Assembly (NCBI GenBank): GCA_965222975.1
Contig: CBDCVJ010000053.1
Location: 2,269 to 66,268, forward strand
From: Saprospiraceae bacterium
GTDB taxonomy: Bacteria; Bacteroidota; Bacteroidia; Chitinophagales; Saprospiraceae
DNA length: 64,000 nt
Reading direction: 5' to 3'
Shown: piece by piece, positions 12,076 through 44,578 of the stretch
Position numbering within the stretch: position 1 is the first letter of the stretch
Layout: every line of letters begins with the position of its first letter
Made by a program: the position numbers and the translations under genes
The notes under the pieces: generated by a model
The model's input: only the letters and a program-made list of their open reading frames with translations
What the model was told of the DNA's origin: nothing
Database searches by the model: none

Positions 12076-13431
12076 ATGTACTATCAAAATATTTTAGAAA
12101 CCATTGGCCATACGCCTCTTGTCAAGCTAAATAAAACAGTGGCGGACATCCCAGCGCTGGTGCTTGGCAAAATAGAAACGTTCAACCCTGGTCATTCCAT
12201 TAAAGACCGTATGGCTTTGAAAATGCTCGAAGTGGCAGAGGCGGAAGGCAAAATCAAACCTGGCGGCACCATCATCGAATGCACCAGTGGGAATACGGGC
12301 ATGGGCCTCGCCATCGCCGCTTGTGTGAAAGGCTATCGCTGCATTTTTACCTCCAACGACAAGCAATCAAAAGAAAAATTTGACCTTTTGCGGGCCTTGG
12401 GCGCAGAAGTCGTTGTCTGCCCAACCAATGTAGAATCCACCGATCCCCGAAGCTATTACAGTGTGGCCGAACGCTTGAGCAAGGAAATTCCCAATTCCTA
12501 TTGGTTCAACCAATATGACAACCTCGCCAACCGACAGGCGCATTACGAGCAGACTGGCCCTGAGATTTGGGAACAGACGGAAGGGAAGGTCACCCATTTG
12601 GTCGTCGGTGCTGGCACTGGCGGTACAATTACGGGGACTGGTAAATTTCTAAAAGAAAAGAATCCAAACATAAAAGTCTGGGCCATAGATACTTATGGCT
12701 CTACTTTGAAAGCTTACCATGAGACAGGAAAGATTGACGAAAAGGAAATCTACTCCTATATCACCGAGGGTATTGGCGAGGACATCGTTCCCAAAAACTA
12801 TGACTTTTCTGTCATTGACCATTTTGAAAAAGTAACAGATAAAGATGGCGCTGTATGGGCAAGGAAAATGGCCAAAGAGGAAGGCATCCTTTTGGGGTAC
12901 TCGGCAGGGAGCGCTTTGGCTGGTCTGCGTCAAATGAAAGATCAATTGACCAAAGATGATGTGGTCGTTATTGTCTTTCATGACCACGGCAGCCGCTATG
13001 TCGGTAAAATTTATAACGACGACTGGATGCGGGAACGAGGTTTCCTCGATGAAGAATTGAAGGTCAAAGACCTTATAGCCATGAAGCACAACAAGGGATT
13101 TCTCTCCGTGAATAAAACAGACTCCGTGAAAAGTGCTTTTGACATCATGCGCCAAAAGGATATTTCACAAATGCCCGTCATGGACAATAGCGACATCGTG
13201 GGCTCAATTACCGAAACGGTTGTATTGAAATATTTGCTTGAAAACCCACTTGGTAATTCAGAAAAACCTGTGGAAAGTGTAATGGGCAAGCCTTTCCCTG
13301 AAGTGGATGAAGATCTGCCTTTCCGCCAGTTGGGGAAATATCTAAATAAGGGAATACCTGCAGTTGTGGCCAAAGATCGGGCTGGGAGTTTGCATGTGTT
13401 GACGAAGTATGATGTGATTCAGGCGGTTTGA
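12076..13431 (+). CDS. Cystathionine beta-synthase (PLP domain plus tandem CBS domains)
   Basis: HSIKDRMALKM (PLP lysine), CTSGNTGMGLA, GAGTGGTITG, and a C-terminal CBS pair (DISQMPVMD ... PAVVAKDRAGSLHVLTKYDV). Confidence 0.85.
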   Translation: MYYQNILETIGHTPLVKLNKTVADIPALVLGKIETFNPGHSIKDRMALKMLEVAEAEGKIKPGGTIIECTSGNTGMGLAIAACVKGYRCIFTSNDKQSKEKFDLLRALGAEVVVCPTNVESTDPRSYYSVAERLSKEIPNSYWFNQYDNLANRQAHYEQTGPEIWEQTEGKVTHLVVGAGTGGTITGTGKFLKEKNPNIKVWAIDTYGSTLKAYHETGKIDEKEIYSYITEGIGEDIVPKNYDFSVIDHFEKVTDKDGAVWARKMAKEEGILLGYSAGSALAGLRQMKDQLTKDDVVVIVFHDHGSRYVGKIYNDDWMRERGFLDEELKVKDLIAMKHNKGFLSVNKTDSVKSAFDIMRQKDISQMPVMDNSDIVGSITETVVLKYLLENPLGNSEKPVESVMGKPFPEVDEDLPFRQLGKYLNKGIPAVVAKDRAGSLHVLTKYDVIQAV

Positions 13432-15219: not shown

Positions 15220-15556
15220 GTCTGGTTGTGTTGATAGATGGGTTAAAGATAAAATTAATTGGTTTCACATTTACATTTTCACATTGACTTTCTTATTTCG
15301 AAATTTTTAATACTGATTTTTTCTAAATTGACAATTCTCATCTTCTTATGAGACCAATCTCACAACCCATCCTCGACATCATTTGTTCTTTTGCCATCCA
15401 AAGGCCGAACTTTGCGGCCATTTAAAAAAAAATTGGCCAAACGAGTAGGGTTTATAGTTAATCAGAGCTTCAAAACTCAATAACTCTTCCAGAGGAATCC
15501 CTTGTCCAAAGGACTCCCTTTGGGATGGGAAAAACCCTCTAACTCAAAACTCTTTC

Positions 15557-17428
15557 ATGACCCAGCAAATAGAAAAAACAGATGTTGTCATAAAATTCGC
15601 CGGAGACTCTGGCGACGGTATGCAACTCACCGGAAGTTTCTTTACAGGCGATACCGCCCTCTTTGGAAACGACCTTGCCACCTTCCCTGATTTCCCGGCA
15701 GAAATACGTGCACCGGTTGGCACGGTGGCTGGTGTATCAGGTTTTCAGATACATTTTGGCAGTAGGGTCATCCGTTCCCCCGGCGACTATTACGATGTAC
15801 TGGTGGCATTGAATGCAGCAGCTTTGAAAGCCAACCTCCCCCTGCTCCGCAAAGGAGCTACAATCATCGTCAACGAAGATGGATTTGATGCCAAAAATCT
15901 GCGCTTAGCGAAATACGAAGATGGCCATAACCCCTTGGAAGACAATACCTTGGAAGGGTATGATGTTATAAAAATCCCTATCACAAAATTAACTCGTGAG
16001 GCACTCGCTGATTTCTCGCTCGGCACCAAAGAAAAAGACCGCAGTAAGAACATGTTCGTATTGGGTTTCCTGCTTTGGCGCTACAACCGCACGCTCGACA
16101 CTGTCCTGCGATTTCTGACAACAAAATTTAAAAAGAAGCCCGATTTGATTGAATTGAACAGGAAAGTGTTGTTGGCAGGTTATCACCTTGCCGATACCAT
16201 GGAGGAATTTACTTCCCGCTATCTGGTGAAACCCGCCCAACTGCCTAAAGGTAGATACCGCAACATCAAGGGAAATGATGCACTAGTGCTTGGATTGGTC
16301 GCTGCTGCCAAAAAATCGGGCTTGACGCTTTTTTATGGTTCTTATCCGATCACACCTGCTTCCAGTATTTTGAACAGCTTGGCCAATCTCAAAAATTTTG
16401 GGGTAAAAACCTTTCAGGCAGAAGATGAAATCGCTGCCATCTGTTCTGCGATTGGAGCAAGTTATGGCGGCAACCTTGCTGTAACAGGTACATCAGGGCC
16501 TGGCATGGCGCTGAAATCGGAGGCAATGGGGCTGGCCGTTATGCTGGAGTTGCCGTTGGTCATTGTGGATGTACAGCGGGGAGGGCCTTCTACTGGATTG
16601 CCAACCAAAACGGAGCAGTCCGACCTTTTACAGGCACTGTACGGCCGCAATGGTGAATGTCCGCTGCCCGTTCTCGCTGCCCGGTCGCCTGCCGATTGTT
16701 TTGATACGGCCTTGGAAGCATGCCGTATAGCGGTGGAACACATGACCCCGGTCATCCTTTTGAGCGATGGTTACATTGCCAATGGATCACAGCCTTGGCG
16801 TTATCCAAAAGCCAAAGACCTTCCCGCGATAAAAACAAAGTTTGCGAATCCAAAAGAAAATGGCGTCTCTTTCATGCCTTATGAAAGGGATAAAAATAGG
16901 GTTCGCAAATGGGCAATACCAGGTACTCCCGGCCAAATGCACAGGGTAGGTGGCCTCGAAAAGGAAGACCTCACAGGCAATGTTTCTTACAACCCTACCA
17001 ACCACGAACACATGGTAAAAACGAGGGAGGCAAAAGTGGATTTGATCGCCAATTTCATCCCTGAGCAAAAAATGGAAACAGGAGTAGAAAGTGGTGAATT
17101 GTTGTTGCTTGGATGGGGTCCGACCTATGGCATCTGCAAGACCCTTACGGAGCGCTTGAACAAAGAAGGCCATAAAGTCGGCCATGTTCATTTGCGTTAT
17201 ATCAGGCCATTTCCCCGCAATCTTGGGGAGATTTTGAAAAGATTTGATAAAATACTCATCCCGGAAATCAACAACGGGCAACTCAGCAAAGTAATTCGGG
17301 ATCACTACCTCATAGAGGTAATACAATACAACAAAATACAGGGCCTGCCGATGAAGAGAGAAGAACTGACTGAATTTGCGATGACTTTACTTAGAAAGAA
17401 AAATATAGAGAGCAAGGTAAATAAATAG
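15557..17428 (+). CDS. korA: 2-oxoglutarate:ferredoxin oxidoreductase, alpha subunit (fused gamma-alpha type)
   Basis: VIKFAGDSGDGMQLTG, GSYPITPAS, GTSGPGMALKSE and VDVQRGGPSTGLPTKTEQSDL motifs. 623 aa. Followed by the beta subunit. Confidence 0.85.
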   Translation: MTQQIEKTDVVIKFAGDSGDGMQLTGSFFTGDTALFGNDLATFPDFPAEIRAPVGTVAGVSGFQIHFGSRVIRSPGDYYDVLVALNAAALKANLPLLRKGATIIVNEDGFDAKNLRLAKYEDGHNPLEDNTLEGYDVIKIPITKLTREALADFSLGTKEKDRSKNMFVLGFLLWRYNRTLDTVLRFLTTKFKKKPDLIELNRKVLLAGYHLADTMEEFTSRYLVKPAQLPKGRYRNIKGNDALVLGLVAAAKKSGLTLFYGSYPITPASSILNSLANLKNFGVKTFQAEDEIAAICSAIGASYGGNLAVTGTSGPGMALKSEAMGLAVMLELPLVIVDVQRGGPSTGLPTKTEQSDLLQALYGRNGECPLPVLAARSPADCFDTALEACRIAVEHMTPVILLSDGYIANGSQPWRYPKAKDLPAIKTKFANPKENGVSFMPYERDKNRVRKWAIPGTPGQMHRVGGLEKEDLTGNVSYNPTNHEHMVKTREAKVDLIANFIPEQKMETGVESGELLLLGWGPTYGICKTLTERLNKEGHKVGHVHLRYIRPFPRNLGEILKRFDKILIPEINNGQLSKVIRDHYLIEVIQYNKIQGLPMKREELTEFAMTLLRKKNIESKVNK

Positions 17429-43666: not shown

Positions 43667-43858
43667 GATAATTTTATACTACTGGACATAAGAGATTAGA
43701 CATTGGACTTCAGAATTAAAACATCATTTAATGCTGATAAACAACTGTTTAAAAATAATTTTTTATATAATGTATATCGTTTAAAACCTTATTTCAGGCA
43801 GTATTAGGTAATTTTTATTTGGAAAATATATTTGTGTATCAATATCTTCCTTCAGGTT

Positions 43859-43895
43859 AAAAAATAAAAAGTCTATCCAGATGAATTGGATAGGC
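43859..43895 (-). terminator. Rho-independent terminator after the insertion-bearing tRNA-Ser copy
   Basis: Minus strand reads CTATCCA-ATTCATC-TGGATAG followed by ACTTTTTATTTTTT. Confidence 0.6.
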
Positions 43896-43908
43896 TTTAA
43901 AGATATGT

Positions 43909-44036
43909 GGAGAGGGAGGGATTCCTCCACGGGAGTTCCTTTGGAAGAACCCCCGGTACCTCGCGGTACGCCGGTTTTTCCCAAAGGGACTCCCGTGGAG
44001 CAAGACCGGTGCAATAAACCAGGCTCTGCCACCTCT
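43909..44036 (-). ncRNA. tRNA-Ser(UGA)-derived RNA gene / pseudo-tRNA with two 22-nt insertions
   Basis: Base-for-base identical to positions 3-86 of the tRNA at 44353-44439, except for 22-nt insertions at + strand 43979-44000 (between G35 and A36) and 43925-43946 (between C56 and G57). The two insertions are reverse complements at 20/22 positions. Confidence 0.7.
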
Positions 44037-44045
44037 GGCATGGGA

Positions 44046-44288
44046 TCAGATGATCCTATTGTTTTTTAAGAAACGGTATCCTTCAATGGTTTTGAAAAAC
44101 CGCTCTCTTTTGAGAGCGTCCCTTTTAGTTTCAAACTCCTCGAAATAGTGGACAGACCACTGCTTTCCCGGTTTTGTGGAAGGAACCTTACCGGAGTTGT
44201 GGTATTTGAGCCGTTTTTCTAAATCCGAGGTAGCGCCATAATAGTGCTTTCCTGTTTTTTGGCTTTTTAAGATATAGGTAAAATACAT
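44046..44288 (-). CDS. Small GIY-YIG nuclease-domain protein (COG2827/YhbQ-like)
   Basis: 80 aa: FTYILKS...GKHYYGATSDLEKRLKYHN...FETKRDALKRERFFK, carrying the GIY, YIG, Arg and Glu positions of the fold. Confidence 0.8.
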   Translation of the reverse strand: MYFTYILKSQKTGKHYYGATSDLEKRLKYHNSGKVPSTKPGKQWSVHYFEEFETKRDALKRERFFKTIEGYRFLKNNRII

Positions 44289-44304
44289 GGTAGAATGTTT
44301 TGGA

Positions 44305-44340
44305 AAATAAAAAAGCCCATCCGAAACATTTCGAATGAGC
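44305..44340 (-). terminator. Rho-independent terminator after tRNA-Ser
   Basis: Minus strand reads GCTCATTCG...CGGATGGGC (two G-U pairs that only work on this strand) followed by TTTTTTATTTT. Confidence 0.65.
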
Positions 44341-44352
44341 TTTGCTGAAGAG

Positions 44353-44439
44353 CGGAGAGGGAGGGATTCGAACCCCCGGTACCTCGCGGTACGCCGGTTT
44401 TCAAGACCGGTGCAATAAACCAGGCTCTGCCACCTCTCC
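44353..44439 (-). tRNA. tRNA-Ser (anticodon UGA), class II with long variable arm
   Basis: GGAGAGG acceptor stem pairs with CCUCUCC. Anticodon arm CCGGU-CUUGAAA-ACCGG, variable arm GUACC-GCGA-GGUAC, T arm GGGGG-UUCGAAU-CCCUC, discriminator G. No encoded CCA. Confidence 0.95.
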
Positions 44440-44578
44440 GGTTAATTAACCACATATGTCATCGTGGCAAGATTGTAAAAAGTAAAAACGCTTCGACTTT
44501 TCAAAAGCGGGTGCAAATGTAAATTCCTATTTCAAAATAACAAAACTGTTATCTCGAAGAAATGATTCATTTTGTGAT

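Follow-up and report, generated by a model that had tools for sequence, protein, structure and literature searches.

A 64,000-nt stretch of a Saprospiraceae genome assembly (contig CBDCVJ010000053.1; hereafter the window) contains, on its minus strand, a tRNA-Ser(UGA) gene, a hairpin with T-tract, an open reading frame (ORF) for an 80-aa GIY-YIG protein and, 9 nt further on, a second copy of the tRNA that is interrupted by two 22-nt double-hairpin inserts and followed by another hairpin with T-tract. We lean towards reading this locus as one copy of a cassette that is selfish, resides at tRNA genes and has a minimal GIY-YIG nuclease at its core, and in which the hairpin modules would block the target sites of the enzyme. 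The cassette may represent a free-standing homing-type nuclease at tRNA genes, and its double mini-hairpin module may be new in kind; the system appears to be widespread, conserved and undescribed.

The tRNA-Ser locus

The intact gene (44353–44439; all features of the locus lie on the minus strand) is the sole tRNA gene of the window and encodes a class-II tRNA of 87 nt which is presumably functional, being called by ARAGORN and matched over its full length by Rfam model RF00005 (55.4 bits). The interval between this gene and the nuclease gene holds an intrinsic-terminator-like hairpin of 14 pairs with a T-tract (44302–44343). The stand-alone nuclease gene, of the UPF0213/Slx1 type, occupies positions 44046–44288 (Pfam PF01541, E 6.6e-15), the tRNA copy positions 43909–44036, and a second terminator-like hairpin with T-tract lies 3' of the copy at 43860–43893. 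Both hairpins were recognized by a terminator scan, from which their function is presumed; an alignment indicated that they are not homologous. An earlier note, made from the letters of this DNA, had described the same layout, and its coordinates, the 87-nt tRNA, the 80-aa ORF, the 9-nt gap, the terminators and its counts all hold.

Outside the inserts, the copy is identical to positions 3–86 of the tRNA (84/84), as the note had claimed. Its acceptor positions 1–2 read CC instead of GG, and the discriminator likewise lies outside the copied segment. When tRNA detection was run on both loci, the intact gene was called, whereas the copy, with both loops split by 22 nt, was called neither by ARAGORN nor by Rfam at E ≤ 1. 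The sequences 3' of the tRNA and of the copy are unrelated (28/64 identical without gaps, a T-run being the sole resemblance), so the duplicated segment does not reach beyond the body of the tRNA.

Module 1 (43979–44000; CTCC-ACG-GGAG + TCCC-TTT-GGGA) splits the anticodon loop between positions 35 and 36 at CTTG|AAAA, a site that fits the motif STYS|RAW ([G/C]T[T/C][G/C]|[A/G]A[A/T]) discussed below, and module 2 (43925–43946; TTCC-AAA-GGAA + CTCC-CGT-GGAG) splits the T loop between positions 56 and 57 at GTTC|GAAT. The note's description of the inserts as a single module present in two orientations, reverse complements at 20/22 positions and each made of two mini-hairpins with 4-bp stems and 3-nt loops, was borne out. 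Module 1 and the reverse complement of module 2 differ at two positions, and these changes compensate each other within a single mini-hairpin (TCCC-TTT-GGGA versus TTCC-TTT-GGAA); what they maintain is the 4-bp hairpin rather than a duplex between the inserts. The anticodon and T loops contain the motif and are both occupied, while the D loop (CCTGGTTTATTGC) has neither motif nor module. Beyond the T-loop module, 16 nt of tRNA-homologous sequence remain. Elsewhere in the window, there is no match to the 22-mer with 3 or fewer mismatches, the expectation from shuffled sequence being 0. With a length of 22 nt, and no Rfam intron match in 43800–44500 at E ≤ 1, the inserts are neither group I introns nor introns of the 37/38 type, in agreement with the note.

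The 80-aa nuclease

The Pfam GIY-YIG domain spans residues 1–66 of the 80-aa protein. A profile built from 15 homologues matched, among PDB entries, the UPF0213 proteins BH0048 (E 8e-12) and EF2693 (E 8e-11) as well as SLX1 (E 2e-3), although the identity of the protein to its UPF0213/Slx1 relatives is only about 28%. Its AlphaFold model (predicted local distance difference test, pLDDT, 96.8) is one compact domain, for which Foldseek returned as best matches UPF0213 and the Slx1 nuclease domain (template modelling score 0.70–0.72, root-mean-square deviation 1.6–2.3 Å), followed by the catalytic domain of I-TevI. Residues Y5, Y16, R26, H30 and E62 are invariant across the 15 homologues, and Y17 and G18 nearly so. 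Both the fold and the Tyr/Tyr/Arg/His/Glu catalytic positions place the protein in the GIY-YIG superfamily, and it is plausibly an active nuclease. The NCBIfam model for group I intron endonucleases scored 21 bits, compared to a cut-off of 56. The closest homologues among the matches listed come from metagenome-assembled genomes (MAGs) of Saprospiraceae. A perfect 7-bp palindrome within the ORF (CGCTCTC-AAAA-GAGAGCG, 44101–44118), called terminator-like on both strands, is probably coincidental, because the conserved KRER segment is encoded there.

Nuclease-linked relatives

A search of one-genome-per-species contigs with two conserved peptides yielded at least 599 candidate stretches, at least 555 of which encode a relative of the nuclease. 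We examined 84 loci, namely the best 80 of the at least 555 relatives, the window, and three from an exact-protein look-up. Among the matches listed, the hosts belong to the Saprospiraceae, Lewinellaceae, Chitinophagales, Cytophagales, Bacteroidales and Flavobacteriales, and to the Ignavibacteria/Melioribacteraceae, Calditrichia, Balneolaceae and Chlorobiota. GIY-YIG genes flanked by duplicated tRNAs, for which the earlier note had proposed a search in related Bacteroidota, form a widespread family.

An intact tRNA gene on the same strand was found within 200 nt of the nuclease gene in 68/84 loci, and within 10 nt in 23 of them; it is located upstream in 37 loci and downstream in 28. Most of the linked tRNAs are Ser (UGA, CGA, GGA, GCU); Glu-CUC also occurs, and His occasionally. 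On its other side, the nuclease gene is nearly always bordered by a partial or near-complete copy of the linked tRNA that contains short inserts. These copies comprise 5' parts, 3' parts or the whole tRNA, and stand upstream, downstream or without an ORF; 5'-partial copies upstream of an intact tRNA are common. Copies that lie upstream have further modules toward their 5' end, in the D loop or at 9|10; in downstream copies, modules are found in the T loop. In 20/84 loci, the nuclease gene is present at least twice. One array (L019) begins with two upstream 5' copies and the intact tRNA, after which the pair of nuclease gene and interrupted copy occurs three times in a row, every ORF beginning directly 3' of a tRNA-type 3' end. 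More generally, the nuclease ORF often starts 0–3 nt after a tRNA 3' end, or its stop codon lies 2–6 nt before a tRNA 5' end; because of this tight packing, expression of the nuclease from tRNA promoters is probable. In the window, expression would need read-through of the 14-bp terminator, suggesting that it is low.

The recurrence of this architecture bears on the most trivial explanation, that the window copy is a decaying tRNA pseudogene, the attachment-site (att) remnant of an integrase, or an assembly artefact. Integrase insertion normally yields partial 3' tRNA duplications (PMC9897764), and many related loci are at contig ends, the nuclease gene being within 400 nt of one in 20/84 loci. 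However, isolates and complete genomes have the same arrangement, as do hundreds of assemblies that are independent of one another, and since it is carried by closed chromosomes and by cultured strains such as Fulvivirga lutimaris KCTC 42720, Tangfeifania diversioriginum DSM 27063 and Rosettibacter primus, it is not an artefact of assembly. No integrase adjoins the window locus, where the copy spans positions 3–86 and only a 243-bp ORF intervenes, and 5'-partial copies, which integrases do not produce, exist among the relatives. Random decay, against which the earlier note had also argued, does not fit the exact insertion sites, the covarying hairpins described in the next section and the 84/84 identity. 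We consider this whole group of explanations highly improbable.

The insert module

The catalogue of inserts comprises 114 entries, of which 65 are exactly 22 nt long, representing 51 unique sequences; the other size classes are single units and runs of three to six. The 22-nt module is composed of two 11-nt units of the form YNCC-NNN-GGNR. In the unit stems, 375/408 positions form Watson-Crick pairs (92%), as compared to 68% with shuffled partners (the maximum of 1000 shuffles was 297), and the stem types include TCCC/GGGA, CTCC/GGAG, TGCC/GGCA, TTCC/GGAA, GCCC/GGGC, TCGC/GCGA and CCAC/GTGG. As the unit stems covary across many stem types, the mini-hairpins are selected or mechanistically enforced. 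The stems of the two halves of a module often differ. Loop 1 is purine-rich and loop 2 pyrimidine-rich in 141/163 modules, a property which is not altered by reverse complementation. Selection of the whole 22-mer as a perfect palindrome was considered and rejected, since 17/163 modules have a second loop that is the reverse complement of the first, with 30 expected.

Judged by the conserved YCCC/GGGR unit, modules occur in both orientations, in the proportion of 51 to 25 in T loops and of 5 to 11 in anticodon loops; an inverted pair of one module, as in the window, is ordinary across the family and unusual inside one copy. One and the same module can be found in several tRNA types and metagenomes, as is TCCCGAAGGGACTCCTTTGGAG in Arg, Glu, His and Ser. 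The earlier note had counted precise, equal-length paired inserts among the features that speak against random decay. As a trait of the family, such pairs were not upheld: most relatives carry one module or at least three, and many copies are differently truncated, so that equal-length pairing does not define the family. What characterizes the family is its hairpin unit of 11 nt, placed at a specific motif of the loops.

Insertion sites

The nuclease-ascertained loci contain strict modules in T loops (46), anticodon loops (35) and D loops (9), at 9|10 (4) and elsewhere (4). Their contexts are CTTG|AAAA, GTTC|GAAT, GTTG|AATG, GTCG|AATG and CTCG|AAAA. STYS|RAW, a motif derived post hoc from these same, phylogenetically related loci, accounts for 79/90 exact insertions, the other 11 being distributed over 3,678 spanned non-motif positions; 72% of the spanned motif sites are occupied, and 31 are without insert. 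In the anticodon loop, where the contrast is confounded with tRNA identity, a module is present in 52/55 copies that span a motif-bearing loop (Ser-UGA, Ser-CGA) and in 1/21 with a motif-free loop (Glu-CUC/UUC, Pro, His, Ala, most Ser-GGA), so that a loop by itself does not suffice. Occupancy of the D loop follows the motif weakly (11/21 with and 10/37 without it).

Flank polarity of the tRNA copies

The conservation of the copies on the two sides of a module is unequal. For 137 T-loop modules of downstream copies, the outer 15 nt are 96% identical to the tRNA (100 perfect) and the inner 15 nt 83% (37 perfect); in upstream copies (n = 18) the polarity is reversed, with 93% identity of the 5' flank and 77% of the 3' flank. 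Where the T stem differs from that of the neighbouring tRNA, one pair is simply lost in 26/38 copies, nearly always by a change of the inner strand, and this loss argues against selection for a tRNA-like fold of the copy. Such a polarity would be expected of an outer flank that served as conversion tract or homology arm next to a dispensable inner flank, and favours a DNA-level process which keeps the outer flank matched to the real tRNA. No sharp 5' boundary at the anticodon loop was found for the downstream partial copies, whose start positions are broad. At two loci, L171 (about position 451) and L194 (about position 12440), the T-stem and acceptor 3' strands of a partial Arg-CCU copy correspond to the L086-type tRNA and differ from the neighbouring one; since the copy matches the tRNA of another lineage, copy and module were presumably acquired horizontally.

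The lengths of the homologous blocks allow a different reading, namely that the modules serve as an anti-deletion (addiction-like) device. Crossovers between tRNA and copy that delete the nuclease gene would then almost without exception give a dead tRNA with modules, and viable deletion would be possible only via the outer block of 16–36 nt, which would stabilize the cassette. Consistent with this, modules always lie between the intact tRNA and a short outer block, as with the 16 nt that remain in the window, and the extra modules lie 5'-ward (D loop, 9|10) in upstream copies, T-loop modules being found in downstream ones. Such a device nevertheless predicts selection against identity of the outer block, which is the best-conserved part of the copy, and it leaves the site motif unexplained. 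Moreover, the downstream copies of L021, L047 and L083 have an anticodon-loop module only and keep 52 nt of uninterrupted homology, and the solo copies described below have no gene to protect. We give this reading little credence.

Predicted RNA fold

The earlier note had suggested that the two inserts pair in the transcript to a helix of about 22 bp that bridges the loops. The predicted single-strand fold of the window copy indeed contains a 21-pair inter-module helix (−64 kcal/mol, z = −4.2), and the copies of L016 and L047 likewise fold with an inter-module helix. As a feature of the family, the helix did not stand: inter-module complementarity is 14.1/22 in 16 other same-copy pairs, compared to 13.95 ± 2.8 between loci, and in 3/6 two-module copies the minimum-energy fold lacks inter-module pairing. 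Any two modules are complementary at about 14/22 positions because all are variants of one quasi-palindromic consensus. The value of 20/22 in the window is reached by 2% of random pairs; the bridging helix is a local accident of the window copy.

These results also bear on a possible function at the RNA level, in which the copy would give a structured RNA, derived from the tRNA and transcribed together with the nuclease mRNA, that is either a bridged-loop RNA or a tRNA-like punctuation, stability or processing signal for the mRNA ends. The folds of the three copies, the covariation of the unit stems, and the ORF–tRNA spacing of a few nt, which suggests that expression is coupled to tRNA transcription and processing, would agree with it. 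A conserved structured RNA is unlikely, though, because complementarity within copies is at the level seen between loci, the modules occur in two orientations, the copies are truncated in many ways (5', 3' or whole, on either side of the ORF or free of it), and the inner flank, including the inner T-stem strand, decays without compensation. In addition, most copies carry one module, and there is no Rfam match. An RNA-level role thus appears quite unlikely to us.

Modules without a nuclease gene in cis

Searching metagenomes with a T-loop module pattern (GGTTC + two units + GAATCC) gave at least 120 contigs. Among those listed, a nuclease gene was located within 1.2 kb of the module in 47 contigs (tblastn) and within 1.5 kb in 44 (profile search). 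Both flanks are visible over more than 1 kb in 46 contigs; in this set, 17–18 modules are accompanied by a nuclease gene, and 28–29 (about 60%) have none in cis. In the solo form, an intact tRNA and a spacer of 7–90 nt precede a partial copy of the tRNA 3' part, which the module splits exactly at 56|57. This form occurs with Arg-ACG/CCU/UCG/UCU, Pro, Val, Ala, Ile, Gly, Met, Leu, Cys, Tyr and other tRNAs, and some solo forms contain 2–4 tandem units with a period of 59–120 nt. The neighbours of solo copies are ordinary genes (HEPN/nucleotidyltransferase, EVE, deaminase, PTS-EIIA). Viral contigs scanned with the 22-mer and with the T-loop module pattern gave no match, hence no sign of phage origin.

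Arrays of three to four units (59–120 nt) with no intervening nuclease gene were noted at L095 (5072–5347), L139, L140, L155, L195 and L024 (2305–2520), each unit being the partial 3' part of a tRNA with a T-loop module. In L098, L118, L131 and L135, distal units look more decayed than the tRNA-proximal unit, as judged by eye and not quantified. At L188 (7305–7778) and L189 (2656–3129), a gene of the cytidine/adenosine deaminase family (MafB19-deam/dCMP_cyt_deam_1) lies just downstream of a solo-module tRNA-Arg; our guess is that it might encode the tRNA deaminase TadA, and the adjacency is possibly just normal synteny.

Whether the 22-mer is a generic repeat scattered at many unrelated sites, similar to repetitive extragenic palindromic (REP) sequences or miniature inverted-repeat transposable elements (MITEs), had been raised in the earlier note. 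In 700 kb, 162 strict modules are near tRNA-derived sequence and 3 are far from it, and 188 kb of far flanks of the nuclease loci contain no core module. The modules are therefore nearly confined to tRNA-derived sequence.

The solo copies lend weight to the view that the 22-bp module is itself mobile, a two-hairpin micro-element which is cut and joined into STYS|RAW sites either way round. This reaction would be supplied in trans, by the GIY-YIG protein or by some other enzyme, the solo copies would be non-autonomous and MITE-like, and the cassette would be no more than the autonomous element or a frequent companion. Insertion in both orientations at the same class of sites, identical modules across tRNA types and metagenomes, the two modules of the window being one sequence inverted, and the lack of a nuclease gene in cis for 28–29 of the 46 fully visible T-loop modules all point in this direction. 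Modules at different loops of the same element are also slightly more similar (16.7/22) than modules of different loci (15.7/22), a value reached by 141/5000 random sets. On the other hand, there is neither target-site duplication nor a terminal inverted repeat beyond the hairpins, and copies outside tRNA-derived sequence are nearly absent (3/165 in 700 kb, 0 in 188 kb). The constant availability of a redundant tRNA copy and the outer/inner flank polarity would be left unexplained, and we know of no GIY-YIG enzyme that catalyses strand transfer. We judge such a micro-element rather unlikely.

Proposed mechanism

Returning to the nuclease cassette that we favour, the enzyme would cut the DNA of tRNA genes at STYS|RAW, that is, in the T-loop box GTTC|GAAT, in the anticodon loop of Ser UGA/CGA (CTTG|AAAA, CTCG|AAAA) and in some D loops. 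Repair of the break from a cassette-bearing template would copy the nuclease gene together with a piece of tRNA. Repair would always regenerate one intact tRNA, with a redundant partial or near-complete copy staying behind on the other side, and repeated cutting of the surviving intact tRNA could lead to tandem arrays. In the redundant copy, each cuttable motif would be occupied by a 22-bp module and thereby destroyed as a target; the modules would render the copy useless as a tRNA and split its homology to the real gene into short, poorly recombinogenic blocks. Two of the ideas floated in the earlier note, a nuclease-immune target copy and the footprint of a palindromic element that targets loops, both come close to this reading. 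As expected of a free-standing homing endonuclease, the gene is located beside its presumed tRNA target, at several isoacceptors, in tandem arrays, and with a tRNA fragment of foreign type at L171 and L194.

The strongest outside support is provided by a 2026 study of SegB of phage T6. This GIY-YIG nuclease, encoded in a tRNA cluster, cuts within tRNA genes with the preferred motif RAWTSGAAC, and its nuclease activity is required for the recombination-dependent tandem amplification of tRNA and segB (PMC13096335). By our reading, the reverse complement of the SegB motif, GTTCSAWTY, corresponds to the T-loop box, and STYS|RAW resembles it.

Several observations weigh against the cassette model. 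Unlike characterised homing endonucleases, the protein lacks a separate DNA-binding domain, as judged from the Pfam span and the structural model; its cleavage of DNA and the sites of cutting are predictions. The support from site occupancy is tempered by the post hoc derivation of the motif from related loci, by the confounding of the anticodon-loop contrast with tRNA identity, and by the weak dependence of D-loop occupancy on the motif. The intact tRNA beside the cassette retains all motif sites, so the host allele is not immune. No pair of empty and filled sites was present among the recovered loci. The majority of fully visible T-loop modules have no nuclease gene in cis, no other nuclease genes were found beside solo copies, and nuclease-linked cassettes rarely use the tRNA types of the solo form (Arg, Pro, Val, Ala). 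Mere blocking of sites leaves two covarying mini-hairpins, conserved across phyla, unaccounted for; nor does the model account for the arrival of modules at new sites in both orientations, or for solo copies at tRNAs that are seldom occupied by nuclease cassettes. Because of these gaps, namely the need for hairpins, the spread in both orientations and the solo copies, the trans-mobilized micro-element stays alive as a competitor.

A bolder interpretation, doubtful but to be taken seriously, is that the 22-bp double mini-hairpin is a new genetic object, placed in either orientation by a minimal Slx1-like nuclease system into a 7-nt motif of tRNA genes. It would act as a DNA-level 'lock' which marks and silences redundant tRNA copies across a bacterial superphylum, and the solo forms beside more than 20 tRNA species would be its non-autonomous progeny. 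If true, it would be the smallest site-specific mobile module known, with the smallest self-sufficient targeting nuclease.

Comparison with known systems

The system resembles the Seg-type free-standing endonucleases of T-even phages in having a GIY-YIG gene among tRNA genes, a related motif, and tandem arrays of tRNA and nuclease genes. SegB has about 220 aa with a C-terminal DNA-binding part. Unlike this phage protein, the 80-aa protein consists of the catalytic core only, is of the UPF0213/Slx1 type and is encoded on chromosomes of the Bacteroidota–Ignavibacteria–Calditrichia group, and tRNA copies interrupted by hairpin modules, as found here, have not been described for SegB. The UPF0213 proteins (BH0048, EF2693; YazA/YhbQ group) are similarly small, with chains of 96–107 aa compared to 80 aa; to our knowledge, neither tRNA linkage nor mobility has been reported for them. 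Slx1 differs by its partner Slx4 and a RING domain.

In organellar homing-endonuclease ORFs, too, the host gene is kept intact by a replacement segment and a displaced fragment is left, and the double-hairpin elements of Allomyces mitochondrial DNA, reportedly described by Paquin, Laforest and Lang in 2000 (Mol Biol Evol 17:1760), are likewise short, mobile-looking inserts of two hairpins. These cases are mitochondrial, concern protein genes and rRNA variable regions, and involve longer, dispersed elements, whereas here the host gene is a tRNA gene, the module has 22 bp, and one motif in redundant tRNA copies is used. Archaeal tRNA genes can contain multiple small bulge-helix-bulge introns at non-canonical positions, which are spliced by EndA and reside in the sole functional copy. 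Such introns share with the present inserts a length of tens of nt, their location in the D, anticodon, variable and T-loop regions, and their occasional multiplicity; the modules differ in that the units pair with themselves and not with exon sequence (92% Watson-Crick), both orientations occur, the copy has an incomplete acceptor stem, and an intact tRNA stands alongside (68/84 loci), and on these grounds they are not introns of this type. With REP sequences, bacterial interspersed mosaic elements (BIMEs) and MITEs, the modules have in common short palindromic units, gene-free copies and identical units at different loci; unlike these repeats, 162/165 strict modules are at tRNA-derived sequence, one exact motif is used, and there is no target-site duplication.

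A survey of prokaryotic tRNA gene fragments covers spacers of CRISPR arrays and integrase remnants, not the hairpin-interrupted copies (PMC9897764). Full-text literature searches, which leave most subscription journals outside, returned no account of tRNA copies that are interrupted by hairpins, nor of small GIY-YIG genes beside the tRNA genes of bacteria, and so concur with the earlier note, which knew of no described class matching the locus.

The elements constitute a large unannotated class at bacterial tRNA genes, known from at least 555 genomes at the species level and, in metagenomes, from at least 120 contigs. They break assemblies and seed spurious ORFs, and their tRNA-derived copy, as in the window, escapes tRNA detection. 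They would extend the reshaping of tRNA arrays by GIY-YIG nucleases from phage T6 SegB to bacterial chromosomes, and the minimal nuclease of 80 aa, whose target (STYS|RAW) is apparently short and predictable, might have value as a tool. The need for two covarying 4-bp hairpins bears on the question of how cells handle palindromic heterologies in recombination and repair.

Further observations

Upstream of the intact tRNA gene of the window, a promoter-like block (TACATTTGCACCCGCTTTTGAAAAG, 44497–44521, minus strand) can be read directly from the sequence. It contains TAnnTTTG, which we take to be a Bacteroidota-type −7 element. The window (44497–44521, minus strand), L001 (about 2884–2910) and L002 (about 2826–2850), whose genomes are distantly related, share a conserved block TAnnTTTGCnnnCCGnTTTTGAAAA that lies upstream of their first tRNA-Ser, or copy of it; the block is probably a Bacteroidota-type promoter with an extra conserved element.

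A module-like cluster, TTCCAGAGGAA tccctt GTCCAAAGGAC TCCCTTTGGGA tgggaaaaaccc, is present on the plus strand at 15487–15525 of the window, remote from the tRNA and the nuclease gene and just 5' of a 623-aa ORF (15557–17428). Its element TCCCTTTGGGA equals a unit of module 1, and its flanks, GAATCCCT and AAAACC, resemble T-loop and anticodon-loop junctions; the cluster may be the fossil of an old interrupted tRNA copy.

In two Bacteroidota MAGs, L040 (1830–1995) and L049 (86–251), the 80-aa nuclease gene is preceded not by a tRNA but by a tRNA-like gene of 166 nt, which combines an acceptor-type stem of 8 bp with a T arm (GAAGGTTCGAGCCCTTC) and, in the place of the variable arm, a region of about 90 nt. 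It was not called by ARAGORN and matched no Rfam family even at E ≤ 1. Its downstream copy is interrupted at GGGGTT|GACCACC by one 22-nt module in L049 and by up to four units in L040, and in L040 further units are located at a second site.

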